A DNA stretch of 64,000 nt, taken from an uncultured Mycoplasmatota bacterium (GTDB lineage Bacteria > Bacillota_I > Bacilli_A > RF39 > UBA660). Positions 3,047 to 26,828 of the stretch are shown here, in pieces. The DNA is taken from assembly GCA_946494015.1 (NCBI GenBank), contig CAMMBL010000002.1, positions 1,379 through 65,378 on the forward strand, in the 5' to 3' direction. The notes under the pieces are model-generated. The model made no database searches. It was not told where the DNA came from and saw nothing but the letters and a program-made list of their open reading frames with translations. The position numbers and the translations under genes were made by a program. The first letter of the stretch is position 1. Each line of letters starts with the position of its first letter.

Positions 3047-3066
3047 GAAGGAATAAAAAAGTAGTA

Positions 3067-6206: not shown

Positions 6207-6207
6207 A

Positions 6208-7039: not shown

Positions 7040-7041
7040 TT

Positions 7042-12565: not shown

Positions 12566-12576
12566 AGGAGATACAA

Positions 12577-14112
12577 ATGAAAAAGTTTTATATTACAACA
12601 CCTATTTATTACCCAAGTGCAAATTTTCATATTGGTCATTGTTATACCACAATAATTGCAGATGCAATTGCAAGGTATAAACGAAATAAAGGATTTGATG
12701 TTTATTTTCAAACTGGTACCGATGAACATGGTTTAAAAATAGAAACTAAAGCCAAAGAGGCTGGAGTTAGTCCTAAAAAATATGTAGATAAGGTGGTTTT
12801 AAATGCTAAGGATTTATGGAAATCTTTAGATATTTCTTATGATTATTTTATTAGAACAACAGATGAAAATCACGTTAAAGCTGTTCAAAAAATATTTACT
12901 AAATTATATGAACAAGGTGATATTTATAAAGGTACTTATAAAGGACTTTATTGTATTCCTTGTGAATCATTTTGGACTAAAACGCAACTTATAGATGGTA
13001 AATGTCCTGATTGTGGTAGAGAAGTTAAAGAAGTGGAAGAAGAAGCTTATTTTTTAAAGCTTTCAAAATATCAAGATCGATTAGTTGAATATATAGAAAG
13101 TCATCCTGATTTTATTGAACCAGAATCTCGTAAAAATGAAATGATAAATAATTTTATTAAACCTGGTCTTGAAGATTTATGTGTTTCAAGGACAAGTTTT
13201 ACATGGGGAATTCCTGTTCCCTTTGATCAAAAACATGTTGTTTATGTATGGTTAGATGCTTTAACTAATTATATAACTTCATTAGGATATATGAGTGATG
13301 ATGACACTAAGTTTAAACAATATTGGCCAGCTGATTTACATTTAGTTGGTAAAGAAATCATTAGATTCCATACAATAGTTTGGCCTATTATACTGATGGC
13401 GTTAGATTTACCATTACCAAAAAAAGTTTATGGACATGGTTGGTTAGTTATTAATGGTAATAAAATCTCTAAATCTTTAGGAAATTATAAAGATCCAAGA
13501 GAGTATATTAAATATTTTGGTGTTGATGCTGTAAGATATTTTGTATTAAGAGAAGTTCCTTTTGGTAATGATGGTAATTTTTCTGTTGAAGCTCTAATTG
13601 ATAGAACTAATGCTGATTTAGCCAATACACTTGGTAATTTAGTTCAAAGAACTATTAGTATGGCAAATAAATATTTTGAAGGTAAAATAAGTAATAAAAA
13701 GGTTTATGAAGATATAGATAATGATTTTATAAAAAAAATAAATAGTTTAGATGAAGATGTTTCTTTAGAAATAGATAAATTAGAAATATCTTTAGGACTT
13801 AATAAAATTTTTGAATTATTAAGATTTAGTAATAAATATATAGATGAAACAATGCCATGGGTATTAGCAAAAGATGAAAAAAGTAAAGATAGACTTGAAA
13901 CAGTCTTATACAATTTACTAGAATCTATTAGAGTGTGTGCTTTGAGTCTTAATTTTGCTATTCCATCAACTAGTAGAGAAATTATTAGACAACTTAATAA
14001 TAAAAGTTCTGATATTAAATATTTAGAAGATAATAATTATGAAGTAATTAGTCCAAAACCTTTATTTGGAAGAATTGATAAAGATACTTTTTTAAAAGAA
14101 CATGATTTGTAA
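12577..14112 (+). CDS. metG: Methionine--tRNA ligase (short form without the C-terminal tRNA-binding domain)
   Basis: HIGH motif (NFHIGH), KMSKS variant (KISKS), zinc knuckle CIPCE...CPDCG. AAGGAGGAG RBS precedes the ATG at 12577; the ORF track start at 12508 lies inside the T-box leader. Confidence 0.93.
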   Translation: MKKFYITTPIYYPSANFHIGHCYTTIIADAIARYKRNKGFDVYFQTGTDEHGLKIETKAKEAGVSPKKYVDKVVLNAKDLWKSLDISYDYFIRTTDENHVKAVQKIFTKLYEQGDIYKGTYKGLYCIPCESFWTKTQLIDGKCPDCGREVKEVEEEAYFLKLSKYQDRLVEYIESHPDFIEPESRKNEMINNFIKPGLEDLCVSRTSFTWGIPVPFDQKHVVYVWLDALTNYITSLGYMSDDDTKFKQYWPADLHLVGKEIIRFHTIVWPIILMALDLPLPKKVYGHGWLVINGNKISKSLGNYKDPREYIKYFGVDAVRYFVLREVPFGNDGNFSVEALIDRTNADLANTLGNLVQRTISMANKYFEGKISNKKVYEDIDNDFIKKINSLDEDVSLEIDKLEISLGLNKIFELLRFSNKYIDETMPWVLAKDEKSKDRLETVLYNLLESIRVCALSLNFAIPSTSREIIRQLNNKSSDIKYLEDNNYEVISPKPLFGRIDKDTFLKEHDL

Positions 14113-14236
14113 AATTTATTGTAAAGAAAAAAATAAATGAGGTTTATTTTACATGTAATCTCATTTTTTATGTTATAGTTAAAGGGTAGTGTATGAGGTA
14201 ACTAGTAGTATTGAAGTCGTAAGAAAGGATGAATCT

Positions 14237-14419
14237 ATGACTAAAAGACGAAAGTTAGAAATTGACAGTATAATATTTTTATTATTATATGCCGGATTGT
14301 TTGTAACAGTTATTTTGGTACATAATTTATTAGATATTATTTATTTTATAACTTTAACATTCTATTTAATTAGACTTATTTTATGTCGAAAGAAAAAAGA
14401 TCATGTAAATAATAATTAA
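14237..14419 (+). CDS. Small hypothetical membrane protein (60 aa)
   Basis: AAGGATGA RBS before the ATG at 14237, two hydrophobic segments, and a strong terminator immediately downstream. Confidence 0.4.
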   Translation: MTKRRKLEIDSIIFLLLYAGLFVTVILVHNLLDIIYFITLTFYLIRLILCRKKKDHVNNN

Positions 14420-14444
14420 TAAGTTAAGAAAGTGGAGTTTAAGG

Positions 14445-14479
14445 ATGATTTCTTGTTGATTAGAAATCATTTTTCTTTT
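14445..14479 (+). terminator. Rho-independent terminator
   Basis: Perfect 9-bp stem ATGATTTCT / AGAAATCAT with an 8-nt loop, followed by TTTTCTTTT. Confidence 0.75.
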
Positions 14480-14564
14480 ACTTAAAAGAATAGTTATATT
14501 TGACTATATAACTTTAAACATGATATAAATTAAGTAAAAAATGATAATAAAATTGGAGGTAATT

Positions 14565-15323
14565 ATGTTAATTGATACTCATTGTCATTTAAGTAGTGAA
14601 TATTATGATAATATAAATCAAATAGTAGAAGAAAATAAAAAAGCTTCTGTTTCTTTTATGGTAGTATCTGGCTGTGATAAAAGTGGTATAAAAGAAGTTT
14701 TAGAATTAAAGAAAAAATATGATTGTGTTTTTGCTACAATTGGTTATCATCCTGATTGTGCTGATAAAATTACTTATAATGATTTAAATGTTTTGAAAGA
14801 ACAATTAAAAAATGATAAAATTGTTGGAGTAGGAGAAATTGGCTTAGATTATTATTATACTAAAGAAAATAGAGATAAACAGTTATGGCTATTTGAAGAA
14901 CAATTAAAAATAGCTCAGGAATTAAAATTACCTGTTGTTATTCATTCTAGGGAAGCTACACTTGATACTATTAATATTTTAAAAAAATACAAATTAAAAG
15001 GAATAATTCATTGTTTTAGTGGAAGTTTAGAAACTGCTAATATTTATATAAAGATGGGTTATTTTTTAGGAATTGGAGGGGTTGTAACTTTTAAAAATTC
15101 AAAACTTAAAGAAGTTGTTAAGCAAATATCTTTAGATAATATTGTCCTTGAAACTGATAGTCCATATCTTACTCCAGAGCCTTATCGAGGTAAGAAAAAT
15201 TCTTCTAAATATTTAAATAACATAGCTAGTTACATAGTAAATATCAAAAATATTAATTATGAAGAAGTGGAAAAAATTACTAGTGATAATGCTTGTAAGA
15301 TATTTGACTTTAATATTAAGTAG
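14565..15323 (+). CDS. tatD: TatD-family metal-dependent DNase/hydrolase (YabD)
   Basis: MLIDTHCHL start, GEIGLDYY, VIHSREA and ETDSPYL motifs. GGAGGT RBS. Confidence 0.9.
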   Translation: MLIDTHCHLSSEYYDNINQIVEENKKASVSFMVVSGCDKSGIKEVLELKKKYDCVFATIGYHPDCADKITYNDLNVLKEQLKNDKIVGVGEIGLDYYYTKENRDKQLWLFEEQLKIAQELKLPVVIHSREATLDTINILKKYKLKGIIHCFSGSLETANIYIKMGYFLGIGGVVTFKNSKLKEVVKQISLDNIVLETDSPYLTPEPYRGKKNSSKYLNNIASYIVNIKNINYEEVEKITSDNACKIFDFNIK

Positions 15324-15362
15324 TGTTATTATCAAACTAATAGAAAATGAGGTATAGAAGTT

Positions 15363-15950
15363 ATGAGCATAAAATTTGTAAAATACTTCGGATTTATTAG
15401 TTTGATTTTTTTATTTGCAATTGTAGTTTTATCTGGAAATAAAAAAACGGTGATAACTACATCCAATATTAATAGTGTTAAATCTTTACAGGCTGTGCAT
15501 ATTGTTAATAAATATAATTCAATTAAGGTAGCAGAAGAAAAAAAAGAAACACCAGTTTTTGCTACTTTTAATGAAGCTATAGCTGTGGCTAGTAATATGC
15601 CTGTCGCTTTTATGGGAAAGCTTACAGCGTATGGCCCTGATTGTCCTGGTTGTTCTGGTAACAGCGCTTGTCCACCTAGACAAAACTTTAAAAATGGTAA
15701 TATTTATTTTAATGATCAAGTTTATGGAAAAGTTAGAGTAGTGGCTGCTGATAGATCTATACCTTGTGGAAGTATAGTTCGTATTTCAGGTATAAGAATT
15801 TATGATCAGCCTATTTTAGCTATAGTTATGGATAGAGGTGGTGCAGTTAAAGGTAATCATTTAGATTTGTTATTTACAAGTCAATCTAATTTAGAAGGCT
15901 TTACTACTAGTAATAATATTAAATTTGAAATAATTAGATATGGATGGTAA
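15363..15950 (+). CDS. 3D-domain (MltA-like double-psi barrel) secreted cell-wall protein, YabE-like
   Basis: N-terminal signal-anchor helix. C-terminal block GKLTAYGPDCPGCSG...VAADRSIPCGS...VMDRGGAVKGNHLDLLF is typical of 3D domains. It follows tatD as yabE does in Bacillus. Confidence 0.75.
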   Translation: MSIKFVKYFGFISLIFLFAIVVLSGNKKTVITTSNINSVKSLQAVHIVNKYNSIKVAEEKKETPVFATFNEAIAVASNMPVAFMGKLTAYGPDCPGCSGNSACPPRQNFKNGNIYFNDQVYGKVRVVAADRSIPCGSIVRISGIRIYDQPILAIVMDRGGAVKGNHLDLLFTSQSNLEGFTTSNNIKFEIIRYGW

Positions 15951-15963
15951 AATAAAGTATTAT

Positions 15964-15989
15964 AGTGTCTAAACTCTGACACTTTTTTT
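15964..15989 (+). terminator. Rho-independent terminator AGTGTC-N8-GACACT plus T7 (first copy of the GTGTC/GACAC terminator family)
   Basis: Read directly. The same stem recurs after array genes 1-5. Confidence 0.75.
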
Positions 15990-16007
15990 CTTTTTATCAA
16001 AAAAGTA

Positions 16008-16037
16008 TTGCTATCTTCATTTTTTTTGTGCTATAGT
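16008..16037 (+). promoter_or_regulatory. Sigma-A-type promoter P1: TTGCTA, 18-nt spacer, TGcTATAGT (extended -10)
   Basis: Read directly. The spacer contains a T8 run at 16020-16027. GAAGGAGG RBS lies downstream. Confidence 0.65.
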
Positions 16038-16065
16038 TATATTGTAGAAGGAGGTTAGACAGAGA

Positions 16066-16671
16066 ATGAAAAACGATAATTCTAAGCATGTATTATTAGC
16101 TGTGCTTGGAGTAGCTATTTTAATTGTGGCTGTAGTTGGAGTATCATTTGCAGCATTTAGTTATAGTAAAACTGGAACAAAAGTTAATACTATTACAACA
16201 GGTACTATTACAATGAGTTATAGTGAAACTACTAATGGTATTAATTTAGTTGATGCTCTACCTATGACTGATACTCAAGGTAAAGCATTAACTGGTGAAA
16301 ATAACGTTTTTGATTTTACAGTAAGTGCTACTATTACTGGTACTACTACTATCAATTATGATATTACAGCAACAAAAGAAGAAGGTAGCAATATTGATGA
16401 TTCAGGAGTTAAAGTTTATTTAACTGATGGTGCAAATCCAAGTGAATCTCAAATATTAGCACCTACAAAAATATCTGCTTTATCAAAAACATCTTCAGCT
16501 GCTTCAGGAGCACCAGATGATCAATATATTTTAGAAACTGGTACTATTTCAGCAACTCAATCTAAAAACTATCGTTTAAGAATGTGGGTAGCTGATGATT
16601 ATACTAATCTTGGTACATCTGGTACTTATAAATTACGTGTAAATGTCTATGGAAAAGCAGCTGCACAATAA
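16066..16671 (+). CDS. TasA/camelysin-like SipW-cognate secreted protein, paralog 1
   Basis: 201 aa. One N-terminal hydrophobic helix followed by FAAFSYSKTGTKVNTITTGTITM. The C-terminus carries YRLRMWVAD...YKLRVNVYGKAAAQ. No Cys, lipobox or LPXTG. Strong RBS. Confidence 0.8.
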   Translation: MKNDNSKHVLLAVLGVAILIVAVVGVSFAAFSYSKTGTKVNTITTGTITMSYSETTNGINLVDALPMTDTQGKALTGENNVFDFTVSATITGTTTINYDITATKEEGSNIDDSGVKVYLTDGANPSESQILAPTKISALSKTSSAASGAPDDQYILETGTISATQSKNYRLRMWVADDYTNLGTSGTYKLRVNVYGKAAAQ

Positions 16672-16686
16672 GCTAATTTATATTAA

Positions 16687-16712
16687 AGTGTCTAATCTCT
16701 GACACTTTTTTT
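16687..16712 (+). terminator. Terminator AGTGTC-N8-GACACT plus T7
   Basis: Read directly. Confidence 0.75.
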
Positions 16713-16729
16713 CTTTTTTAAAAAAAGTA

Positions 16730-16759
16730 TTGCTATCTCTATTTTTTTTGTGCTATAGT
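16730..16759 (+). promoter_or_regulatory. Promoter P2: TTGCTA, 18-nt spacer, TGcTATAGT
   Basis: Near-identical to P1. T8 run at 16742-16749 within the spacer. Confidence 0.65.
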
Positions 16760-16787
16760 TATATTGTAGAAGGAGGTTAGACAGAGA

Positions 16788-17390
16788 ATGAAAAATGATA
16801 ATTCTAAGCAAGTATTATTATCAGTTCTTGGTGTGGCTATTTTAATTGTAGCTGTAGTTGGAGTATCATTTGCCGCATTTAGTTACAGTAAAACAGGAAC
16901 AAAAGTTAATACTATTACAACAGGTACTATTACTATGAATTATAGTGAAACTACTAATGGTATTAATTTGACTAATGCTTTACCTATGAGTGATGAAGTA
17001 GGAAAAAAATTAAGTGAAACTGATCAATATTTTGATTTTACTGTTAATGCTAATATTACAGGTAATACTACAATTAATTATGCTATTACAGCGACAAGAG
17101 AAGAAGATAGCGATATTCCAGATACAGGAGTTAAAGTTTATTTAACTGATATGGATGGTACTGCTGATACTGAAATATTAGGTCCTACAAAAATTTCAGC
17201 TTTATCAAAAACATCTTCTGATTCTTCAGGAGCACCTGATGGTCAATATCTTTTAGAAACTGATACATTTAATACAACAAGTTCACATAATTATCGTTTA
17301 AGAATGTGGGTAGCTGATGATTATAGTGTATCTGATACAGCTGGTACTTATAAGTTACGTGTTAATGTTTATGGTCAAGCAGCTGCTTAG
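16788..17390 (+). CDS. TasA/camelysin-like SipW-cognate secreted protein, paralog 2
   Basis: 200 aa with the same N-terminal and C-terminal blocks as paralog 1. The loop after NGINL is of the DEVGKKL..DQYFDF type shared with paralog 7. Confidence 0.8.
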   Translation: MKNDNSKQVLLSVLGVAILIVAVVGVSFAAFSYSKTGTKVNTITTGTITMNYSETTNGINLTNALPMSDEVGKKLSETDQYFDFTVNANITGNTTINYAITATREEDSDIPDTGVKVYLTDMDGTADTEILGPTKISALSKTSSDSSGAPDGQYLLETDTFNTTSSHNYRLRMWVADDYSVSDTAGTYKLRVNVYGQAAA

Positions 17391-17411
17391 TAATAGTATT
17401 ATTTATATTAA

Positions 17412-17434
17412 AGTGTCTAATCTCTGACACTTTT
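17412..17434 (+). terminator. Terminator AGTGTC-N8-GACACT plus T-run
   Basis: Read directly. Confidence 0.7.
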
Positions 17435-17444
17435 CTTTTTTTTC

Positions 17445-17474
17445 TTGCTTGCTTTTAATTTTATATGATATAGT
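17445..17474 (+). promoter_or_regulatory. Promoter P3: TTGCTT, 18-nt spacer, TGaTATAGT
   Basis: Read directly. Confidence 0.6.
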
Positions 17475-17501
17475 TTAATTATAGAAGGAGGATAATTTAT
17501 A

Positions 17502-18110
17502 ATGGAAGTTGATAATTCTAAGCAAGTATTATTATCAGTATTTGGAGTAGCTATTTTAGTAATTGCTGTTTTTGGAGTTTCTTTTGCCGCTTTTAATTAT
17601 TCTAAAACAGGTACTAAAGTTAATACTATTACAACAGGTACTATTACAATGAGTTATACAGAGCCTGATAACGGTATAAATCTTGCTAATGCAATGCCAA
17701 TGAGTGATTCTCAAGGTAAAGTATTAACTGGGGATAACAATGTTTTTGATTTTACAGTTACTACTACAATTGTTGGTACGGCAACAGTTAATTATACAAT
17801 TACAGCAACTAAAGAAGGAGATAGTACTATTCCAGATACAGGAGTTAAAGTTTATTTAACTAATATGGATGCTGATGCTGATTCACAAATATTAGCTCCT
17901 ACTTTAGTGTCAAATTTATCTAAAACTGGTTCTTCTGAACTTTCTGGTGCTCCAGCTAATCAGTATATCCTTAAATCAGATTCAACTACTAGTAGTGTTA
18001 ATCATAAATATCGTTTAAGAATGTGGGTAGCTGATACTTATACAGTTGGTGGTACTTCACAAACTTATAAATTAAGAGTTAATGTTTATGGTAAAGCTCC
18101 AGCTCAATAG
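17502..18110 (+). CDS. TasA/camelysin-like SipW-cognate secreted protein, paralog 3
   Basis: 202 aa. FAAFNYSKTGTKVNTITTGTITM and YRLRMWVADTY...YKLRVNVYGKAPAQ. Confidence 0.8.
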   Translation: MEVDNSKQVLLSVFGVAILVIAVFGVSFAAFNYSKTGTKVNTITTGTITMSYTEPDNGINLANAMPMSDSQGKVLTGDNNVFDFTVTTTIVGTATVNYTITATKEGDSTIPDTGVKVYLTNMDADADSQILAPTLVSNLSKTGSSELSGAPANQYILKSDSTTSSVNHKYRLRMWVADTYTVGGTSQTYKLRVNVYGKAPAQ

Positions 18111-18120
18111 TAGTTGGCGA

Positions 18121-18148
18121 AAAAGTGTCAAAATTTTGGACACTTTTT
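18121..18148 (+). terminator. Terminator AAAAGTGTC-N9-GACACTTTTT
   Basis: Read directly. Confidence 0.75.
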
Positions 18149-18156
18149 GTTTTTTC

Positions 18157-18186
18157 TTGCTTATTACCCACTTAATATGTTATAGT
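18157..18186 (+). promoter_or_regulatory. Promoter P4: TTGCTT, 18-nt spacer, TGtTATAGT
   Basis: Read directly. Confidence 0.6.
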
Positions 18187-18215
18187 TATAGAGTAGAAGG
18201 AGGTTAGACAAGAAA

Positions 18216-18824
18216 ATGAAAGGTAATAATTCTAAACAGTTATTATTATCAATACTTGGAGTAGCTATTTTAGTAGTAGCTGTAGTAGGTGTATCATTTG
18301 CGGCATTTAGTTATAGTAAAACAGGTACTAAAGTTAATACTATTACAACAGGTACTATTACAATGAGTTATGTTGAAGGTGAGAACGCAATTGATCTTAA
18401 AAATGCAATGCCAATGACTGATGTTAATGGTAAAGCTTTAACTGGAGATAATAATGTTTTTGACTTCACAGTAAATGCAACTATTACTGGTACTACTACT
18501 ATTGATTATGCAATTACAGCTACTAAAGAGCCTGATAGTACATTACCAGAGAGTGGAGTTAAAGTTTATTTAACTGACATGGATGCTGATGCTGATGATC
18601 AAATTTTAGCCCCTACACTTGTATCTAGTTTAGGTAAAACTACAAGTTCAGAAACTTCAGGAGCTCCAGTAGATCAATATAAACTTACAACAGGTACTTT
18701 TAATGCTACTACCACTCACAAATATCGTTTAAGAATGTGGGTAGCAGATACTTATAATGTTAGTGGTACTTCACAGACTTTCAAATTAAGAGTTAATGTC
18801 TATGGAAAAGCTGCTGCACAATAA
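18216..18824 (+). CDS. TasA/camelysin-like SipW-cognate secreted protein, paralog 4
   Basis: 202 aa with the same conserved blocks. Confidence 0.8.
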   Translation: MKGNNSKQLLLSILGVAILVVAVVGVSFAAFSYSKTGTKVNTITTGTITMSYVEGENAIDLKNAMPMTDVNGKALTGDNNVFDFTVNATITGTTTIDYAITATKEPDSTLPESGVKVYLTDMDADADDQILAPTLVSSLGKTTSSETSGAPVDQYKLTTGTFNATTTHKYRLRMWVADTYNVSGTSQTFKLRVNVYGKAAAQ

Positions 18825-18836
18825 AAGATAAATATA

Positions 18837-18859
18837 GTGTCAATTTTTTGACACTTTTT
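18837..18859 (+). terminator. Terminator GTGTCAA-N4-TTGACAC plus T5
   Basis: Read directly. Confidence 0.75.
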
Positions 18860-18867
18860 CTTTTTGC

Positions 18868-18897
18868 TTGCTTCGTTATTATTTATTATGTTATTAT
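18868..18897 (+). promoter_or_regulatory. Promoter P5: TTGCTT, 18-nt spacer, TGtTATTAT
   Basis: Read directly. Confidence 0.5.
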
Positions 18898-18930
18898 TAT
18901 ATTTGTAAGATATAAGGAGGTATATAATAA

Positions 18931-19542
18931 GTGAAGAATAGTAACAAAGGTAACAAACAAGTATTATTATCAATACTTGGAGTGGCTATTTTAGTTGTAG
19001 CTGTTATTGGTATATCCTTTGCCGCATTTAATTATAGTAAAACAGGAACAAAAGTTAATACCATTACAACAGGTACTATTACGATGAGCTATAGTGAGCC
19101 TACAAATGGGATTAATTTAGTTGATGCTCTACCAACAACAGATGCTAAAGGTAAGGCTTTAACAGGTGATGGTAAAGTGTTTGATTTTACAGTTAGTGCT
19201 ACTATTGATGGTGTTACAACTATTAATTATGATATTACAGCTGCTAAAGATGAAACAAGTACTTTAGATGATTCTATTATAAAAGTATATTTGACTAATA
19301 TGGATGGTGATAGTGATACTGAGATATTAGCTCCTACTAGAGCTTCTGAATTACCAACAACAACATCATCATCTTCAGGAGCGCCAGATGGTCAATTTAT
19401 TTTACGCTCAGGTACTATTACATCATCTGAATCACATGATTATCGTTTAAGAATGTGGGTAGCTGAAGATTTTTCGACATTGGGTGCTAAAGGTACTTAT
19501 AAATTAAGAGTTAATGTTTATGGTAAAGCTGATGCTCAATAA
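18931..19542 (+). CDS. TasA/camelysin-like SipW-cognate secreted protein, paralog 5
   Basis: 203 aa with a GTG start after AAGGAGG. FAAFNYSKTGTKVNTITTGTITM and YRLRMWVAEDF...YKLRVNVYGKADAQ. Confidence 0.8.
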   Translation: MKNSNKGNKQVLLSILGVAILVVAVIGISFAAFNYSKTGTKVNTITTGTITMSYSEPTNGINLVDALPTTDAKGKALTGDGKVFDFTVSATIDGVTTINYDITAAKDETSTLDDSIIKVYLTNMDGDSDTEILAPTRASELPTTTSSSSGAPDGQFILRSGTITSSESHDYRLRMWVAEDFSTLGAKGTYKLRVNVYGKADAQ

Positions 19543-19552
19543 TTTTTAATAT

Positions 19553-19578
19553 AAGTGTCAAAAAAAAGACACTTTTTT
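19553..19578 (+). terminator. Terminator AAGTGTC-A8-GACACTT plus T-run
   Basis: Read directly. Confidence 0.7.
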
Positions 19579-19596
19579 CTTTTAAGCAAATAAAAC

Positions 19597-19626
19597 TTGC
19601 TAATACTATTTTTTGTGTGATATATT
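19597..19626 (+). promoter_or_regulatory. Promoter P6: TTGCTA, 18-nt spacer, TGaTATATT
   Basis: Read directly. Confidence 0.6.
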
Positions 19627-19651
19627 AATACTAAGAAGGAGAATAGACATA

Positions 19652-20248
19652 ATGGAAAAAAATAGAAAACAGATTATATGGTCAATTATAGGTATTGTTA
19701 TTTTAATATTAATGGCTATAAGTGTAAGTTATGCTGCAGTTTTTTATAGTAAAACTGGTGAAAAAGTTAATACGGTAACTACAGGTACAATTACAATGAG
19801 TTATAGTGAGAATACTAATGGTATAAATCTTACAGATGCTTATCCTATGGCTGATGGTATTGGTAAGACATTAAGTCAACAAAATCAATATTTTGATTTT
19901 ACAATTAGTGCTACTCTAGGTGATACTATTATTAATTATGCTGTTACTGCTACTAAAGAATCTGATAGTACTTTACCAGATAATGCTGTAAAAGTATATT
20001 TGACTGATATTAATGGCGGAGCTGATAAGGAAATATTAGCACCAACTAAAATATCTGATTTAGATATAACTAGATCACACGTATCAGGAGCACCAGATGG
20101 TCAATTCTTGTTATATAGTAACAGTTTTAGTAAAAATACATCAAATAATTATCGTTTAAGAATGTGGGTAGCTAGTGATTATGTTCTTCCACTTGAAAGC
20201 CAAACATACAAATTAAGAGTTAACGTTTATGGTAGTGTAGTAGCTTAA
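19652..20248 (+). CDS. TasA/camelysin-like SipW-cognate secreted protein, paralog 6
   Basis: 198 aa from the ATG at 19652, preceded by an AGGAG RBS; the ORF track TTG at 19613 lies inside the promoter. SYAAVFYSKTGEKVNTVTTGTITM and YRLRMWVASDY...YKLRVNVYG. Confidence 0.8.
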   Translation: MEKNRKQIIWSIIGIVILILMAISVSYAAVFYSKTGEKVNTVTTGTITMSYSENTNGINLTDAYPMADGIGKTLSQQNQYFDFTISATLGDTIINYAVTATKESDSTLPDNAVKVYLTDINGGADKEILAPTKISDLDITRSHVSGAPDGQFLLYSNSFSKNTSNNYRLRMWVASDYVLPLESQTYKLRVNVYGSVVA

Positions 20249-20264
20249 ATTTATAAAAATATAA

Positions 20265-20292
20265 GGTGTAATATAAGAAACTACACTTTTTT
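20265..20292 (+). terminator. Weaker terminator GTGTA-N11-TACAC plus T6
   Basis: Read directly. Only a 5-bp stem. Confidence 0.45.
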
Positions 20293-20293
20293 C

Positions 20294-20322
20294 TTTACCT
20301 AAAAAAATTCCTGTGGTACAAT
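20294..20322 (+). promoter_or_regulatory. Promoter P7: TTTACC, 17-nt spacer, TGgTACAAT
   Basis: Read directly. Confidence 0.5.
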
Positions 20323-20349
20323 TATTTTAAAGTATAGGGAGTGTTTATT

Positions 20350-20982
20350 ATGAATAATCAAAATTCTGAAGATAAAATAATTGAGAAAAATTCTAGTAGT
20401 AAATTATTTATTATAATAATTGCACTTTTAATATTTAGTATTACAATAGTTGGTGTTTCTCTTGCGACTTTTACTTATACTAAGGAAAAAGAAAATATAA
20501 ATACTATTAGTACGGGAAATATTTATTTAAATTATACAGAAGATACTAATGGAATAAATATTACTGATGCTTATCCTATGGCTGATGAAGTAGGTAAAAA
20601 ACTTACTAATGAAGATCAGTATTTTGATTTTTCAGTTAAAGCTGATTTAACAGGTAATGTTGTTACTAATTATGAAATAGCTGCTGAAAAGACTGAAACT
20701 TCAACACTTAATAATGACGAAGTTAGATTGTATTTAGAAAAAAAAGTTGATGATACTTATCAAGAAGTTATGGCTCCTAAAGAATTTACTCCTTTGAAAG
20801 AAAGTACAGAAATTGGTACTTTAGCAGGAACAATGTTGTTAGATAAAGCTTCTTTCAAAAAAAGTGGCATAATTAATTATCGTTTAAGAATGTGGGTAGC
20901 TGATGATGCAATTTTAACTGATATACAAAAAAGTTTTGGAGTTAAAGTTTCTATAAAAGCTAAAGTTGATTTAGACAAATAA
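20350..20982 (+). CDS. TasA/camelysin-like SipW-cognate secreted protein, paralog 7 (most divergent of the array)
   Basis: 210 aa from the ATG at 20350 (GGGAG RBS 8 nt upstream). SLATFTYTKEKENINTISTGNIYL and YRLRMWVADD...FGVKVSIKAKV. Longer cytoplasmic N-tail, and it lacks the SGAP motif of paralogs 1-6. Confidence 0.75.
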   Translation: MNNQNSEDKIIEKNSSSKLFIIIIALLIFSITIVGVSLATFTYTKEKENINTISTGNIYLNYTEDTNGINITDAYPMADEVGKKLTNEDQYFDFSVKADLTGNVVTNYEIAAEKTETSTLNNDEVRLYLEKKVDDTYQEVMAPKEFTPLKESTEIGTLAGTMLLDKASFKKSGIINYRLRMWVADDAILTDIQKSFGVKVSIKAKVDLDK

Positions 20983-21069
20983 ATTTAGAGGTAATTTTTC
21001 CTAAATATTAATTTTCCTCTTTTTTAGTTTGCATTGTTGATATAAGAATATTAAGTGGGTGATAACTCG

Positions 21070-21744
21070 ATGAAAAATAATAAAAAAAATTGGTTATATA
21101 CATTAAAGAAATTTTTCCATTTCTTGACAACAGTTTTAATGTATTCTATTTGTTTATTAATGGTAATCATTTTTTTAGTATTTGTAGTTAACTTTATTGA
21201 TAAACAAAATAATATTAAAGCTGGTAATAATAAAAAAGATCTTTTATCAGCTTATACAATAGTTAGTCCAAGTATGGTTCCAGCGATAAACGTTCTTGAT
21301 GTAGTTGTTACTAAAAGAGTAGATGATCCTAATGAATTAAAAAAGGGAGATATTATTACTTTTAATTCTACTGATTATAGGTATTCTGGTGTTACAGTAA
21401 CTCATAGAATTGTTGATATAGAAAAAACTAGTAATGGTAAATATTTATATGTTACGAAGGGTGATAATAATAATACTCAAGATTCTTCGAGAATTAGCTT
21501 TGATGAGATTTATGGCGAAGTAATATTTAGAATTCCTAAGATAGGGTATATTCAATATTATCTTAGTTCTATACTTGGTTGGGTATTTATAATTATAATA
21601 CCAGCTGTTATGATTATTATTTATGATATATATAAATTAGTTAAGACTTTAAACACTAAGGATGATAGTAAGGGTAACAAAAAAAATAAAGATAAAACTG
21701 TTAAGAAAAAAGAGAATGTTAAGAAGAGGAGATTTGAAAAATGA
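21070..21744 (+). CDS. sipW: SipW-type (ER/archaeal-type, S26B) signal peptidase I
   Basis: N-terminal TM helix, catalytic Ser box VSPSMVPAI, VTHRIV His box (Ser/His type, no Lys box), KGDNN box and a C-terminal TM helix. Reads collinear with B. subtilis SipW (LSGSMEP...VTHRIVDI...TKGDNN, from memory). A K-rich tail follows. Confidence 0.85.
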   Translation: MKNNKKNWLYTLKKFFHFLTTVLMYSICLLMVIIFLVFVVNFIDKQNNIKAGNNKKDLLSAYTIVSPSMVPAINVLDVVVTKRVDDPNELKKGDIITFNSTDYRYSGVTVTHRIVDIEKTSNGKYLYVTKGDNNNTQDSSRISFDEIYGEVIFRIPKIGYIQYYLSSILGWVFIIIIPAVMIIIYDIYKLVKTLNTKDDSKGNKKNKDKTVKKKENVKKRRFEK

Positions 21745-22280
21745 AAAAGAAGATATTGTTAATAATGGCGGGGTTTGCTTTATTTGTCTTTATTTTGACA
21801 ACATCTATGCTATGGTTTAATTTCTTTTATGATGAACCTGATGTAAATACAATTAGTTCTATACAAGTACAACTTAGTGATACTAATAATGTAATTAATG
21901 AAGCAAATTTAATTCCACTTGATGAAGAAACAGCTAAGTATCTTACTCCTTATGAATTTAGGGTTAGTAATCAAAGTGATGCTGCAACAACTTACAATGT
22001 GTTATTAGAAGATGCAATTATTAGTGATGATATTAATTATAGTAGTAAAGAATTATTAAGTAGAAATCAGTTAGAATATCAATTATCACTTAATGGTAGA
22101 GTTATAAAACATGGTATGTTAAGTGATATAAAGAATAATATTTTGGATACTAGGAATATTGGTACTAATCAAGAAAATTATTATCAATTAAGAATATATG
22201 TAAGTGAAAAAGCTCAAACAAGTGCATGGCAAAATAAATATTATCATTTTAATATAAGAGTACAAATGGAGGATAAATAA
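21741..22280 (+). CDS. Divergent eighth member of the fibre-subunit family (candidate anchor or minor subunit)
   Basis: 179 aa; its ATG overlaps the sipW stop (ATGA). The N-terminal TM helix is followed by WFNFFYDEPDVNTISSIQVQLSDTNNVIN, compared with FAAFSYSKTGTKVNTITTGTITMSYSETTNGIN in the array. YQLRIYVSE and YHFNIRVQ mirror YRLRMWVAD and YKLRVNVYG. Confidence 0.7.
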   Translation: MKKKILLIMAGFALFVFILTTSMLWFNFFYDEPDVNTISSIQVQLSDTNNVINEANLIPLDEETAKYLTPYEFRVSNQSDAATTYNVLLEDAIISDDINYSSKELLSRNQLEYQLSLNGRVIKHGMLSDIKNNILDTRNIGTNQENYYQLRIYVSEKAQTSAWQNKYYHFNIRVQMEDK

Positions 22281-22282
22281 AG

Positions 22283-22972
22283 ATGAAAAAGATTTTATTA
22301 GAGTATGCTAATATTATTGGTTATACTATTACAGGTTTGATTTTTGGATTATCGTTTTTTCTATTATTTATTAATTTTTATCATTCACAAGAATTAAGTT
22401 ATGTTGCTGATGTAAGTGAGTATAATACAATAAATAAAGATACTGTTTCTCAGAAAATTGCTACAATAAGAGCTAATTTAAGTGTATATAATCAAGCAAA
22501 TTATAGTGGTAATTTGAATATCTATGGTCTTAATACAGCTCAAATAAAATTAGAGGAATGTTTAAAAATTATAGAAAGTCCAGAAATGATGGCATATTTT
22601 GAGAAAAAAGAAATTCAATTAAAAGATAGTTATAATTTTGCTGTAGATTTTAAAAATAAGATTTTAAATGATTGTTTAGTTATGCAAGTTAAATCTATGT
22701 TTAATACTGATACAGTATCTAAGCTTCCTAATTTTGATATTATTAAACCATATGTTGAACTTAGTTTAAATAATTTATTAAGCTCATCAGCTTATGTACA
22801 GGCTGATTTAGAAAATGCTGATCATTATTTCTTTAATACAAATGGCAATAGAACTAATTTCTTTGATTTAGTTAATGATAGTTATTCTAATATTATGAAT
22901 GATTATCAAGATTCACTTGATTTATTAGTAGAAATTTCGGCTTGGTTTAAGAGTATAGTAATAGGAGGATAA
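22283..22972 (+). CDS. Hypothetical single-pass membrane protein with a ~190-aa extracytoplasmic domain
   Basis: Starts 2 nt after the preceding stop. N-terminal TM helix (ITGLIFGLSFFLLFINF). No family recognised. Confidence 0.6.
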   Translation: MKKILLEYANIIGYTITGLIFGLSFFLLFINFYHSQELSYVADVSEYNTINKDTVSQKIATIRANLSVYNQANYSGNLNIYGLNTAQIKLEECLKIIESPEMMAYFEKKEIQLKDSYNFAVDFKNKILNDCLVMQVKSMFNTDTVSKLPNFDIIKPYVELSLNNLLSSSAYVQADLENADHYFFNTNGNRTNFFDLVNDSYSNIMNDYQDSLDLLVEISAWFKSIVIGG

Positions 22973-22973
22973 G

Positions 22974-23426
22974 ATGAAAAAGATACTTAATGGTTTATTT
23001 TATTTTTTAAAATTTTTATTGTTGATTGGTGCTTTTGGATTAACTTTATTTATTTTAGTAAGAATGAATATAAGATTAGATAAAAGTGTAACTACAATTA
23101 TTCCTGAAATTGTACCATTTATACTAATATTACTTGTATTTATTATTAATTTTATTTTTAAACAAAAAGGTGTTACTGATAATGTATTTTATAATATTAC
23201 TTGTTGTTTGGTATTTACTACTATAATAGTAGCAAGTTTAAGAGCAATTTTTGATACAAATATGGTTCTTAATAAGAAATATGGTTATGGTATTGATTTT
23301 AATTTTTTTGATAATTTTATTGCTTATATTAAGATTATGGTTTATGGATTATCAATCGCTAATTTATTTTTAATGTTTAGAGAAAAAGATAAAGATGAAA
23401 AGCCTAAGAAAGAAAAAAAAGCTTAG
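22974..23426 (+). CDS. Hypothetical polytopic (~4 TM) membrane protein with a Lys-rich C-terminal tail
   Basis: Starts 1 nt after the preceding stop. Four hydrophobic segments. No family recognised. Confidence 0.6.
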   Translation: MKKILNGLFYFLKFLLLIGAFGLTLFILVRMNIRLDKSVTTIIPEIVPFILILLVFIINFIFKQKGVTDNVFYNITCCLVFTTIIVASLRAIFDTNMVLNKKYGYGIDFNFFDNFIAYIKIMVYGLSIANLFLMFREKDKDEKPKKEKKA

Positions 23427-23502
23427 ACTTTTTATTTTTTGTATAGTAAACTAATTTATATGTGTACAACTTTTATTAATTGTAAGTGAAAAGAGTGATA
23501 TT

Positions 23503-24300
23503 GTGGATAATTTTAGATTTAAAAAAAAGTTTGGTCAAAATTTTTTAAAAAATGCAAATATTATTAAAAAAATAGTTGATTGTGGTAATGTTGAACCTGA
23601 ATCATTAATTTTTGAAGTAGGGACAGGTAGCGGTAATTTAACTTTAGTTTTAGCTGATACTTATAAAGATAGTAAGATTATAACTTATGAAGTTGATGAG
23701 TCATTAGAAGTTATTTTAAATAATAGATTTAAAGAATATAATAATATTATTGTTAAATTTGGTGATTTTTTAAAAGTAGATTTAGATAAAGAAGTAAGTA
23801 ATTATAGTTATAATAAACTTTATTTTATTAGTAATGTTCCTTATTATATTACTACACCTATTTTATTTAAACTTATTGATAGTTCACTTAGCTTTGATAA
23901 AATTATAATGATGGTTCAAAAAGAAGTAGGAGATAGATTTTGTAGTAGTGTTTCTAAAAAGACTTATGGAGCTTTAACTGTTATTTTAAATTATTATTTT
24001 GATATAAAAAAAGAATTTTTAGTAGATAGAAATCAATTTGTTCCTAAGCCTAATGTAGATAGTGTAGTTGTTTCTTTTACTAAGAAAGCTAAACTTTTAC
24101 CACTATATGATGAGAAAGTTTTTATTAAGTTAGTACATGATAGTTTTAAATTTAAGAGGAAGACATTACGTAATAATTTAGTTAACTATAATTTAGATAA
24201 AGTTTTAGAAATACTTAATAAATATGGCTTTGATCTTAGTGTTAGAGCTGAAAATTTAAGTTATGATATTTTTGTTGAGATATCTAATAATTTAGTATAA
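23503..24300 (+). CDS. rsmA: 16S rRNA (adenine1518/1519-N6)-dimethyltransferase
   Basis: KKFGQNFL, EVGTGSGNLT and SNVPYYITTPI motifs. GTG start. Confidence 0.92.
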   Translation: MDNFRFKKKFGQNFLKNANIIKKIVDCGNVEPESLIFEVGTGSGNLTLVLADTYKDSKIITYEVDESLEVILNNRFKEYNNIIVKFGDFLKVDLDKEVSNYSYNKLYFISNVPYYITTPILFKLIDSSLSFDKIIMMVQKEVGDRFCSSVSKKTYGALTVILNYYFDIKKEFLVDRNQFVPKPNVDSVVVSFTKKAKLLPLYDEKVFIKLVHDSFKFKRKTLRNNLVNYNLDKVLEILNKYGFDLSVRAENLSYDIFVEISNNLV

Positions 24301-24338
24301 ATAATTTTTCTAAACATATAATTTATTGGGTGAATTAT

Positions 24339-25127
24339 ATGTTTAAAATAGGAGATTATGTAACTAGAAAATCTTATAATAATGATATCTTATTTGAAGT
24401 AGTTGATATTGATGAAGATATTGCCTATTTAAAAGGTATAGATGTTAGATTATATGCTGATAGTTATCTTGATGATTTATTATTAGCAGATGTTGATATT
24501 TTAAACAATGATAAAAATGATGATCGTAATTATGCATTAAAAATTAAAGATATGTTAAGTCTTGATAGAAGTGAATTTTTTTATTTGCCAGGTAAAATTT
24601 TACATATTGATGGGGATAAAGATTATTTAAAAAGGTGTATTGAATTTTATAAAGAAATGCGATTAGAAGCTTATGGTGTTAATATTTTAGAAGATGAATT
24701 TGAAAAAGAAATAGTTACATGTTTAGAAAAATATAATCCTGATATTTTAGTAATTACAGGTCATGATTCGTTTAAAAAGAATAAAGATAAAAATAAGCTT
24801 GACAGTTATCAAAATTCTTATAATTTTGTAAAAGCTACTATGAAGGCTCGTGAATATGAAAGAAATCAAGATAAATTAATTATTATTGCTGGTGCTTGTC
24901 AATCTTTTTATGAAGATTTAATTAAAGCTGGTGCTAATTTTGCTTCTAGTCCTAAAAGAATTAATATTCATGCTCTTGATCCGGCTATTATTGCTAGTAC
25001 TATTGCTTTATCTCCGAAAAATAAAGAGATAGATTTAATTTCTGTAATAGAAAAAACACATTATGGTAGTGCTGGTATGGGTGGTATTATTACTAATGGT
25101 GTTATGTATGTGGGGTACCCTAGATGA
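24339..25127 (+). CDS. yabG: Sporulation-specific peptidase YabG
   Basis: MFKIGDYVTRKSYNNDILFEV N-terminus and the ITGHD...GACQS core. Follows ksgA as in Bacillus. GGGTGA RBS. Confidence 0.8.
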   Translation: MFKIGDYVTRKSYNNDILFEVVDIDEDIAYLKGIDVRLYADSYLDDLLLADVDILNNDKNDDRNYALKIKDMLSLDRSEFFYLPGKILHIDGDKDYLKRCIEFYKEMRLEAYGVNILEDEFEKEIVTCLEKYNPDILVITGHDSFKKNKDKNKLDSYQNSYNFVKATMKAREYERNQDKLIIIAGACQSFYEDLIKAGANFASSPKRINIHALDPAIIASTIALSPKNKEIDLISVIEKTHYGSAGMGGIITNGVMYVGYPR

Positions 25128-25342
25128 ATATTGATAAAATAAGAAAAGAAATTGAAATGCAAGCTGGTGAAACTTTGCATTTTAAGTTTAATGGTAGTAG
25201 AAATCAAATATTAGAATTTGATGGAAAAATTATTGAAACTTATCCTGCTATATTTGTTGTTAAGTTAACTAGTGATAAAAATAATATTAAGTCGTTTTCT
25301 TATAATGATTTAGTTACATCTAGTTTAGAAATAATTAAGTAA
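25124..25342 (+). CDS. veg: Veg family protein
   Basis: 72 aa. The block G..L.FKFNGSRNQ..EFDGKIIETYPAIFVVKL matches the remembered Veg pattern (LKANGGRRK..ERSGILAETYPSVFVIQL). Confidence 0.8.
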   Translation: MNIDKIRKEIEMQAGETLHFKFNGSRNQILEFDGKIIETYPAIFVVKLTSDKNNIKSFSYNDLVTSSLEIIK

Positions 25343-25417
25343 AAATACTTGCAAAACTTTAATAGTTATTATAAAATTAAGTTGTAAAGTATTAATGCTT
25401 TAAAAGGAGGAACGACG

Positions 25418-25696
25418 ATGAAAATTACATCTGTAAATGTACGTAAAATTGAAAAAGAAGGAAGCCGTATGAAAGGAATAGCATCTGTTTTGCTAGATGA
25501 TTCGTTTGCTGTTCATGATATTAGGATTATTGAAGGTGATAATGGTTTATTTATTGCTATGCCTAGTAGGAAAACACAAGCTGGTGGTTATCGTGATATT
25601 GCTCATCCTATCAATCCAGAAGTTAGAGCAATGTTTCAAGATAAAATTATTGAAGAATATAATAAAGTTAAAGATGAGTCAAAAGAAGAAGATTAA
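25418..25696 (+). CDS. spoVG: Septation/sporulation regulator SpoVG
   Basis: [48 protein letters not shown] is the classic SpoVG sequence. Confidence 0.93.
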
Positions 25697-25716
25697 TTGT
25701 TTTGATTCTTAAGTAT

Positions 25717-25747
25717 AAAAGTTTTGGTGATTATCAAAACTTTTTTT
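25717..25747 (+). terminator. Rho-independent terminator
   Basis: Perfect 10-bp stem AAAAGTTTTG / CAAAACTTTT plus a T-run. Confidence 0.8.
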
Positions 25748-25793
25748 GTCCTAATTTATTAAAGTTTTGCATATATTTTATTAGGGTGATGAT

Positions 25794-26437: not shown

Positions 26438-26497
26438 AGTTTATTGTTCTTTTTTTTTCTTAATATTATAATATATGTTAGGAAAGTAGGTGAATTT

Positions 26498-26800: not shown

Positions 26801-26828
26801 TTATATTAATTGGAGATGTTAAGAGGTT

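Follow-up and report, generated by a model that had tools for sequence, protein, structure and literature searches.

The locus at positions 15964-23426 of the window, the whole 64,000-nucleotide stretch of DNA analyzed here, on balance appears to encode a cell-surface fibre system akin to those of the TasA superfamily, with subunits from a protein family that lacks annotation. With 2,846 clusters at a 50% identity threshold, this family is large, and its module also forms the N-terminus of adhesin-like proteins of 500-1,700 aa in related genomes; sister lineages have at least 9-16 such gene copies per genome. As a sequence-only reading had described, seven consecutive paralogs of ~200 aa, all ORFs of the + strand, precede a tightly packed four-gene block. 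The genes of that span stand, but its start does not, as 15964 marks the hairpin terminator of the 3D-domain gene upstream, outside paralog 1. Paralogs 1 to 5 (16066-16671, 16788-17390, 17502-18110, 18216-18824, and 18931-19542; 201, 200, 202, 202, and 203 aa, the fifth with a GTG start) were classed as putative major-type subunits. Paralog 6 (19652-20248, 198 aa) lies in an ORF that opens at TTG 19613, and paralog 7 (20350-20982, 210 aa), a putative conserved minor-type subunit, in an ORF spanning 20341-20982; their likely true starts, ATG 19652 and ATG 20350, were judged by the ribosome-binding sites in the alignment of upstream regions.

A promoter-like site and a ribosome-binding site of its own precede each tandem paralog, and a terminator hairpin follows most of them. 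The promoter-like site of paralog 1 (TTGCTA, 18 nt, TGnTATAGT) and its GAAGGAGG ribosome-binding site (16008-16065, + strand) are consensus matches only; alignment of the eight upstream regions revealed equivalent elements for paralogs 2 to 6 and weaker ones for paralog 7. Paralog 1 is followed by a terminator-like hairpin (16685-16718, + strand; AGTGTC-N8-GACACT plus a T run), and similar hairpins are present at 17410-17443, 18836-18865, and 19553-19584, with an imperfect one near 18119-18150.

The four-gene block, also on the + strand, starts with a signal peptidase I of the archaeal/ER (SipW-like) type (21055-21744; 229 aa, or 224 aa if the start is ATG 21070). Its stop shares 4 nt (ATGA, 21741-21744) with the start of P8 (21741-22280, 179 aa), an eighth, divergent family member. 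Gaps of 2 nt and then 1 nt lead to X229 (22283-22972, 229 aa), which has a membrane helix at its N-terminus and two invariant Cys in its extracytoplasmic domain, and to Y150 (22974-23426, 150 aa), a small polytopic membrane protein with a Lys-rich tail and about four hydrophobic segments as counted by eye. Profile searches placed neither X229 nor Y150 in a known family; each was found in about 54 related loci.

Our analysis uncovered about 55 species-level MAGs of gut Bacilli that share this locus and its chromosomal position; they have 2-6 family copies, compared with seven in the window. Of 71 related loci from such MAGs, 49 keep the order F(x2-6)-peptidase-P8-X229-Y150 between tatD/3D and ksgA, where F is a family protein. 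The earlier suggestion of an unusual expansion of subunits should be tempered, since operons with several TasA/BsaA paralogs have already been described (PMC11580942).

The family HMM matches all seven paralogs with E-values of 1e-64 to 1e-71, and their kinship is therefore far beyond chance. Identity to paralog 1 is 57-76% for paralogs 2-6 and 36% for paralog 7. The motifs quoted earlier, FAAF[SN]YSKTGTKVNTITTGTITM for genes 1-5, SYAAVFYSKTGEKVNTVTTGTITM for gene 6, and SLATFTYTKEKENINTISTGNIYL for gene 7, are exact in the sequence. Likewise, the Thr/Ser-rich, Cys-free mature parts of ~170 aa that had been noted were recovered: the predicted mature proteins are acidic, of 170-173 aa (about 18 kDa), with no Cys and 16-27% Ser+Thr, and the paralogs carry no C-terminal sorting signal or anchor. 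An internal "LPMTD" was considered as an LPXTG signal and rejected. The nearest relatives of paralog 6 are the second-from-peptidase genes of other genomes. Genes of the paralog 7 type always adjoin the peptidase gene in related loci and are 55% identical among themselves across genomes compared with 36% to other paralogs. Paralogs 1-6 have the N-terminal segment and core in common and differ mainly in the middle third, and so could co-polymerise or replace one another. The dN/dS is 0.25 in the N-terminal mature segment, the most constrained region, and 0.52 in the middle, the most variable part.

The proposal that a cognate peptidase of the SipW/ER type is encoded downstream held in its broader form. 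The enzyme scores 96.4 bits against TIGR02228 (cut-off 51.85), its catalytic Ser, His, and Asp align with human SEC11A at SPSM, THRI, and GDNNNTQD, and it has membrane helices at the N- and C-termini and a Lys-rich tail. It does not, however, qualify as a SipW equivalog, with 99.6 bits against NF046067 (cut-off 190). Its predicted substrates carry a canonical -3/-1 site family-wide (S/T in 94% and A in 88% of sequences) with conserved G at -5 and F at +2. In the window, the cleavage motifs are SFA|AF in paralog 1 (predicted signal peptide 1-29), SYA|AVF in paralog 6, and SLA|TF in paralog 7. Conservation of this motif argues for cleavage of the paralogs by signal peptidase, because a protein anchored without cleavage would not need to keep it.

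In a quite improbable alternative model, the N-terminal helix is retained, as the core of a type-IV-pilus-like filament or as a plain membrane anchor. The long h-region (~20 residues) is very hydrophobic, a single continuous helix spans residues 5-35 in the full-length AlphaFold model (with low confidence), and the best PDB sequence matches of the broad family profile are archaeal type IV pilins (6nav, E 0.014; 8tib, E 0.098). Yet once the helix and globular parts are split, these matches score just 6.9 and 4.5 bits, the level of noise, and the helix ends, on its C-terminal side, in the conserved canonical site. There is also no class III signal peptide, with neither G/A at -1 before the helix nor Glu5, and the locus has no recognizable assembly ATPase, platform protein, or prepilin peptidase, X229 and Y150 having matched no family.

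The resemblance to TasA, camelysin, and TIGR04088 is more limited than had been suggested. The 40 residues from the cleavage site do align in register with TasA (hhalign P=0.0032), and when the signal peptide is included, the alignment extends to 63 columns (E 6e-5); other membrane-anchored proteins of the locus, used as controls, gave nothing (E 0.26-0.35). The paralogs, however, have no significant match to PF12389/Peptidase_M73, NF046066 (TasA), or TIGR04088, and profile-profile comparison of the mature cores with TasA gave no alignment (E=0.13), both of which count against a fibre. The AlphaFold paralog model is a confident jelly roll (pLDDT 86) in which residues 1-10 fall below pLDDT 50 (the modelled sequence starts three residues before the cut). 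Among 350,542 PDB chains, Foldseek ranked the AbpA bundling pilus first (7ueg, prob 0.97, E 1.9e-3, TM 0.35) and the TasA fibre fifth (8aur, prob 0.96). These ranks fit the earlier proposal, but both matches are weak (E about 2-4e-3, TM 0.35-0.39) and no hit had E<1e-3. Generic jelly rolls reach similar scores (pgp3, PA14, CBMs, FimG), which again counts against a fibre. Overall, the TasA reading of the locus is partly supported.

The genetic organization can be compared with that of known fibre systems. TasA and AbpA polymerise by donor-strand exchange and are encoded next to SipW or SPase I, together with genes for accessory, tip, or anchor proteins (PMC9674648, PMC9245690, PMC10151520, PMC11580942, bioRxiv 10.64898/2026.01.04.697558). 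Like tapA-sipW-tasA of Bacillus subtilis (PDB 8AUR, 5OF1; Pfam PF12389), the window encodes an ER-type signal peptidase with its putative substrates, the signal peptides of both end in x-[WFY]-A|A-F followed in register by N..phi..G-T-phi-x-phi, and a low-abundance-type partner gene overlaps the peptidase gene (tapA/sipW there; PMC10151520). In contrast, the mature protein is shorter (about 172 aa versus 234), there are seven major/minor subunit genes with their own promoters instead of one, the partner P8 is a subunit paralog with an uncleavable anchor and not of the TapA type, and two membrane proteins of no known family are added. AbpA of Pyrobaculum calidifontis (PDB 7UEG) and its TasA-superfamily relatives (AbpX, CanA, Saci_0406 threads, Tafi) are alike in subunit size (about 170-180 aa) and SPase I signal peptide, and their loci in SPase I, accessory membrane proteins, and minor/tip components (PMC9245690; bioRxiv 10.64898/2026.01.04.697558); tip/minor components and SPase-accessory genes have been described for TasA-superfamily loci (bioRxiv 10.64898/2026.01.04.697558). 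The host of the window, however, is bacterial (gut Bacilli), and its locus has no match to a DUF5305-type accessory protein or 10-TM peptidase.

The Clostridium perfringens sipW-bsaA-bsaB-bsaC locus also encodes a SipW-type peptidase with several TasA-like paralogs, and in both systems the proposed anchoring is in the membrane and not sortase-dependent, but the VWA protein (BsaC) has no counterpart in the window locus. The BsaA pilus has an intermolecular isopeptide lock, and N41, E54, and K73, present in 7/7 window paralogs, recall its N35-E56-K74 triad (published positions, PMC11580942), although K73 is Lys in just 76% of family members and the N-to-E spacing is 13 versus 21. As a functional analogy only, chaperone-usher and sortase pili with tip adhesins likewise join a polymerisation module to adhesin domains and have a basal terminating or anchoring subunit; the fold family and secretion route differ, and the window has no chaperone, usher, sortase, or LPXTG signal.

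The proposed extra subunit encoded at 21741-22280, P8, proved to be a true family member (E 1.6e-19 against the family HMM). At 28% identity, it keeps the NTI and YxLRxxV motifs, but its N-terminal membrane helix lacks the -3/-1 motif, with TSMLWFNFFY in place of VSFAAFSYSK. The -1 position is L/M in 53/53 P8 orthologues, the cleavage motif being uniformly missing. Because the site is missing, P8 is probably a membrane-anchored base.

One could also imagine nonpolymeric surface or secreted antigens, with a monomeric N-terminal module (e.g., a cell-wall- or glycan-binding stalk), a signal peptidase I of general function, served by accessory subunits of its own, and tandem copies forming a variable antigen repertoire. 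In its favor, the module stands in front of many unrelated passenger domains, in proteins whose genes are dispersed in the genome with no nearby peptidase. About 2 Mb of sampled loci yielded no LepB-type enzyme, the fold matches include carbohydrate-binding jelly rolls (e.g., PA14, CBM32), and the middle of the protein varies most. We nevertheless consider this model unlikely, as conservation is highest in the N-terminal stretch, unstructured in the monomer, which fits an intermolecular role, the top structural matches are fibre subunits, and a housekeeping peptidase would leave unexplained its tight, universal linkage with short members and a coupled noncleavable one. A two-dimensional S-layer-like coat, with the paralogs as alternative or mixed lattice subunits, is least probable of all, even if the genes look highly expressed (each with a promoter-like site and strong ribosome-binding site), the proteins are acidic, Thr/Ser-rich, and Cys-free, and the TasA-superfamily protein AbpX assembles into para-crystalline lattices (bioRxiv 10.64898/2026.01.04.697558), as the mature proteins are far below typical S-layer protein size, profile searches found no SLH or CWB2 anchoring domain, and the best structural neighbours are linear fibres.

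In the TasA-like fibre system that we favor, Sec would export each paralog, and the locus-encoded peptidase would cut behind the conserved [ST]-[FY]-A, releasing the conserved N-terminal segment AFSYSKTGTKVNTITTGTITM, which is disordered or of low confidence in the monomer model. Each subunit could then insert its freed segment as a donor strand into the jelly roll of its neighbour, so that a polymer forms. P8, whose translation is coupled to that of the peptidase and which retains the fold motifs without the cleavage site, would form the membrane base of the fibre as a TapA-like anchor or nucleator, while X229 and Y150 might be membrane accessory factors of the peptidase or of assembly. Paralog 7 would be a conserved minor subunit, and paralogs 1-6 may co-polymerise or substitute for each other, altering the fibre surface. 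Long family members also speak for this model: they carry Big_2, Flg_new, Cadherin-like, Laminin_G_3, DUF285/LRR_5, or ALK_LTK_GRD domains, and in one related locus, L051, a member of 1,120 aa lies inside the array. The large module-bearing proteins of adhesin type might be loaded into or onto the same fibre.

Seven consecutive plus-strand ORFs of 198-213 aa lie between 16066 and 20982, all matching a single family HMM (family F; E 1e-64 to 1e-71) and followed by a tight block of four genes on the same strand (21055-23426). Paralog 1 is 57-76% identical to paralogs 2-6 and 36% identical to paralog 7. The block encodes a signal peptidase (21055-21744), a 179-aa protein, P8 (21741-22280), and two further proteins, X229 (22283-22972) and Y150 (22974-23426), its first two genes sharing a 4-nt ATGA overlap and the next two junctions leaving only 2 nt and 1 nt between genes. 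The sequence-only reading had proposed this arrangement and it held, including the extra subunit, as P8 matches the family HMM (E 1.6e-19) and is 28% identical to paralog 1. The N-terminal motifs had been quoted letter-perfect, and the mature parts, described as about 170 aa long, Cys-free, and Thr/Ser-rich, are predicted to span 170-173 aa with no Cys and 16-27% Ser plus Thr. The proposed start of the locus at 15964 had to be given up: that position marks the terminator hairpin belonging to the 3D-domain gene that precedes the array. For genes 6 and 7, the likely true starts are the ATGs at 19652 and 20350, each with a ribosome-binding site upstream.

The model that we favor is a surface fiber. 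The F paralogs would be exported by the Sec pathway and cut by the locus peptidase after [ST]-[FY]-A; the freed, conserved N-terminal strand would be donated to the jelly roll of a neighboring subunit, and P8, anchored in the membrane, would form the base of the fiber. Interchange among the major paralogs would vary the fiber surface, with paralog 7 as a minor component and the long family members contributing adhesin domains. Gene anatomy, conservation, the predicted fold, and genomic context were observed here; cleavage, polymerization, and the accessory roles are inferred. Taken as a whole, from export and cleavage to strand donation and a P8-based fiber, we regard this mechanism as moderately probable.

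The SipW-type peptidase expected downstream of the array is present: the 21055-21744 product scores 96.4 bits against TIGR02228 (archaeal/ER-type signal peptidase I; cut-off 51.85), and in an alignment with human SEC11A (7P2P) its SPSM, THRI, and GDNNNTQD stand opposite SGSM, VHRV, and GDNNAVDD, which hold the catalytic Ser, His, and Asp. Because it reaches only 99.6 bits against NF046067, the Bacillus SipW equivalog model (cut-off 190), it is a SipW-like enzyme and not a SipW orthologue. This could be the sole signal peptidase I of the cell, and the F proteins could then be monomeric surface or secreted antigens that it processes. We judge this explanation unlikely. No LepB-type enzyme was found in the window or in the related loci sampled (~2 Mb; ~1% of each genome).

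In the fiber model, the cut would fall within a strongly conserved region of the family. The 463 sequences compared have G at -5, S/T at -3 (94%), F/Y at -2, A at -1 (88%), and F at +2, with a conserved Y, K, and G further downstream and then N41 (96%). The N-terminal mature segment has a dN/dS of 0.25 versus 0.52 for the middle third, and variability peaks between the predicted strands.

The sequence-only reading had likened the N-termini to the signal pattern of TasA and of SipW-cognate signal peptides, but the paralogs failed all of the corresponding models, giving sub-threshold noise only. PF12389 (Peptidase_M73) had no match at E<=1 for four paralogs and none at E<=0.001 for nine long members. 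The best score against NF046066 (TasA) was 14.8 bits for a cut-off of 450, with three of 60 family members matching (best E 1.3e-3), and TIGR04088 matched no window protein at E<=1 and three of the 60 family members (best E 0.07). Pfam, NCBIfam, and PHROGs scans of the locus proteins returned nothing for the paralogs, P8, X229, or Y150, and PDB sequence searches with three profiles gave noise only. For a profile-profile comparison, 120 PF12389 proteins were collected, and the TasA query sequence was checked against 8AUR, to which it is identical over residues 28-261. With signal peptides, hhalign aligned 63 columns at E 6e-5; with the mature parts only (130 family sequences against 116 PF12389 proteins), the result was E 0.13 with a probability of 0.5%. 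When the family was cut to residues 25-70, so that the signal peptide's hydrophobic core played no part, 40 columns aligned with TasA, starting at its residue 23 (P 0.0032), with matches in register at G-x-[ST]-[WYF]-A-A-F, N..phi..G-T-phi-x-phi, and N..P. Two other membrane-anchored locus proteins, used as controls, gave nothing against TasA (E 0.26-0.35). Because the N-terminal alignment is in register and the controls were empty, the resemblance is real and specific, but it extends no further than the cleavage region and the initial ~40 residues of the mature protein, and it lies below the TIGR04088 threshold. In TasA, the donor strand is a segment within the first ~40 mature residues (PMC9674648, PMC10151520).

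Structural modeling with the signal helix left in place gave a mediocre result (pLDDT 75.5) and uninformative Foldseek ranks. A second model, of the mature domain with a 60-sequence alignment, is a confident all-beta sandwich (pLDDT 85.7, pTM 0.83), except at its N-terminus, where pLDDT stays below 50 for residues 1-10 and averages 58 over residues 11-20. Among 350,542 PDB chains, Foldseek ranked the AbpA bundling pilus first (7ueg_A; E 1.9e-3, prob 0.97, TM 0.35) and the TasA fiber fifth (8aur_A; E 3.6e-3, prob 0.96, TM 0.39). TasA and AbpA, with which the sequence-only reading had suggested comparing models, thus both appear in these ranks, but the likeness is weak, as no match fell below E 1e-3 and the remaining top matches were generic jelly rolls with similar scores (pgp3, PA14, CBMs, FimG). 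The predicted model fits the TasA superfamily without proving membership. For a possible donor strand the evidence is indirect: the in-register similarity to the TasA N-terminus, and the disorder that the monomer model shows in the conserved N-terminal segment.

The F proteins could instead stay uncleaved, as pilin-like or anchored proteins. PDB hits to archaeal type IV pilins (6nav, E 0.014; 8tib, E 0.098) pointed in this direction, but they dropped to noise (6.9 and 4.5 bits) once helix and globular parts were searched separately, and were rejected. There is also no class III signal peptide, the N-termini reading MK..(K)n and leading directly into the helix, with neither a G/A at -1 nor Glu5, and no genes for a pilus assembly ATPase, platform, or prepilin peptidase were recognized in the locus. 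We hold uncleaved proteins to be quite improbable. An S-layer-like lattice is a further arrangement that the subunits could adopt, and we give it hardly any credence.

As for how the subunits of the favored fiber would be held, they have no LPXTG or C-terminal anchor, as had been noted before: the C-termini (...NVYGKAAAQ) have no LPXTG and no hydrophobic or charged tail. N41, E54, and K73 are found in all of paralogs 1-7, with Asp replacing Glu in P8. They recall the isopeptide triad N35-E56-K74 of BsaA, although the spacing differs and K73 is Lys in only 76% of the family, with N conserved at 96% and E at 91% (PMC11580942). A BsaA-type isopeptide is thus a lead from the sequence and not a result.

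The start of the P8 gene overlaps the stop of the peptidase gene, and tapA and sipW overlap likewise in B. subtilis (PMC10151520). In 53 P8 orthologues, the VSFA|AFSYS of the family is changed to TS[IMV][LMF]W[YF].FFY. As L or M at -1 breaks the -3/-1 rule kept by the rest of the family, P8 probably stays membrane-anchored via its N-terminal helix. We read it as a candidate membrane-bound base of the fiber, either an anchor/terminator or a TapA-like nucleator. X229 has a single N-terminal helix, whereas Y150 is small and polytopic in the membrane; both genes recur in the same loci, and their products may have accessory roles. Neither matched any family or structure, and a profile search with X229 retrieved unnamed relatives only, those placeable in a genome all being from the gut Bacilli clade. 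"SPase-accessory" proteins are reported from TasA-superfamily loci (bioRxiv 10.64898/2026.01.04.697558); no homology of X229 or Y150 to them was found. The extracytoplasmic domain of X229 has invariant C93, C131, H34, N31, and W221 in 28 orthologues, the fiber subunits by contrast being Cys-free.

The regions 5' of paralogs 1-6 can be aligned with one another. Where complete, they contain, in order, a hairpin (AGTGTC-N4-8-GACACT) with a T run, a CTTGCT(A/T) box, an extended -10-like TGnTATAGT ~18 nt further on, and then GAAGGAGG. Six terminator-like sites were found in the region versus 1.8 expected from shuffles. Given this hairpin and promoter-like pattern, each major paralog appears to be transcribed on its own, and the peptidase block as a single coupled unit. 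An Rfam scan of 14000-24500 detected neither a riboswitch nor any other RNA. Invertible-promoter-type inverted repeats are absent from the locus, the repeats reported being terminator palindromes that pair with one another. Tandem Repeats Finder did not detect the array, because the repeat period is longer than 500 nt and the copies have drifted apart. A T8 run lies between the -35-like and -10-like boxes of paralog 1 (16020-16027) and paralog 2 (16742-16749) and is absent from the other paralogs; these runs are too short for a phase variation call. The G+C content of the array (16001-20000) is 0.30 versus ~0.25 in the flanks, and its GC skew is 0.14-0.18 versus 0.3-0.4 in the surrounding genes, all on the plus strand. 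Both shifts may come from Thr/Gly/Ala-rich coding or from a different history.

A profile of the eight window proteins retrieved 2,846 representatives at 50% identity from 1.84 billion proteins, 1,173 of them at E<=1e-10. The sole name among the hits was "hypothetical protein" of Candidatus Onthousia, and neither Pfam nor NCBIfam has a model for the family. In the genome contigs searched, it was found only in MAGs of uncultured gut Bacilli, labeled Bacilli, "Tenericutes," Ca. Onthousia, Ca. Scybalousia, or CAG:451, with a few labeled Mycoplasma, Muribaculaceae, or Firmicutes; one of these genomes is circular (1.52 Mb; OZ006970.1). In 49 of the 71 related loci, the full order F(x2-6), TIGR02228 peptidase, P8, X229, Y150 was present, flanked by tatD on one side (some loci also have the 3D-domain gene there) and by ksgA-yabG on the other. 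The others were mostly truncated by contig ends or were standalone long members, and five more distant loci had no detectable P8. This order agrees with the composition expected of TasA-superfamily loci, a signal peptidase I accompanied by accessory, minor, or anchor components.

The seven F copies of the window are the most among the 71 loci. The gene adjoining the peptidase (paralog 7 type) forms a separate orthogroup, with 55% identity within it versus 36% to the other paralogs. For five of the seven window paralogs, including 6 and 7, the closest relative is in another genome and not in the window, and the synonymous divergence of paralogs 1-6 is 0.6-0.9, so the copies are old and maintained, not recently amplified.

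The locus is inserted in a gene string shared with relatives (12508-15950 and 23503-28148 in the window): metG, a small TM ORF, tatD, and the 3D-domain gene on one side, and ksgA, yabG, veg, spoVG, yabP, yabQ, divIC, tilS, and ftsH on the other. These housekeeping and sporulation genes suggest that the host has a cell wall and forms spores, even though related MAGs are labeled "Tenericutes." The small ORF of the metG-tatD interval (14189-14419) encodes 76 aa from a GTG (59 aa annotated in relatives) with one hydrophobic segment, and a gene is called at the equivalent position in two related contigs, L001 and L002. In L001, an IS605 OrfB/TnpB (Cas12f-like) gene (2883-4031) lies between mfd and spoVT; no equivalent is apparent there in the ORF list of the window.

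About half of the best 150 representatives are long proteins (300-1,743 aa) with the shared N-terminal module at residues ~25-200 and Big_2, Flg_new (Listeria-Bacteroides repeat), or ALK_LTK_GRD domains in their C-terminal parts. Sister genomes have dispersed genes whose products, 500-900 aa long, begin with the module and continue with Cadherin-like, Laminin_G_3, DUF285, BspA-type LRR, or ALK_LTK_GRD domains. Among the best 80 matches, the four best-sampled genomes (UQOS01, CAKOXL01, CANRKU01, and CAKPSO01) each have at least 9-16 module-headed gene copies. CANRKU01 also carries the peptidase locus (L151), and in another related locus (L051:~3000-7600) a 1,120-aa family member is found within the short-paralog array, directly upstream of the minor-type paralog and the peptidase. 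Because the module heads the long members, and because of the locus in CANRKU01 and the array member in L051, the module looks like a handle by which adhesin-like proteins are exported and assembled throughout the lineage. Dispersed 500-1,200-aa F-module proteins with no peptidase nearby are seen in related loci L074-L152, from these four sister genomes, and in L056, L058, L059, and L062-L065.

A broader proposal, which we put forward tentatively and consider doubtful, is that the ~175-aa module is the universal plug-in polymerization handle of this lineage of small-genome gut Bacilli. One peptidase and P8 machine would serve interchangeable, independently transcribed major subunits, and dozens of adhesin/lectin/LRR passengers per genome would be spliced into the donor-strand fiber. 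If true, this would be a modular adhesin-display fiber whose surface could vary by design and whose anchor would be a subunit paralog that cannot be cleaved.

Loci combining a SipW-type peptidase with TasA-like subunits, multi-paralog operons, and predicted tip/minor components are already known (PMC11580942; bioRxiv 10.64898/2026.01.04.697558). What appears new is the F family itself, which is large, unannotated, and fails existing models, along with its conserved locus in an uncultured gut Bacilli clade, the uncleavable paralog coupled to the peptidase, and the scale of module fusion to adhesin-type domains. The family would add a large unannotated branch (2,846 clusters at 50% identity), from uncultured small-genome gut Bacilli, to TasA-type fiber systems, and a family model built from the F sequences would annotate thousands of "hypothetical proteins." The subunit paralog that lacks a cleavage site offers an anchoring hypothesis for a fiber class whose attachment is debated. 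Finally, our analysis suggests that a large share of the adhesins in these gut bacteria is organized by one N-terminal module, which bears on colonization, immune recognition, and phage receptors.
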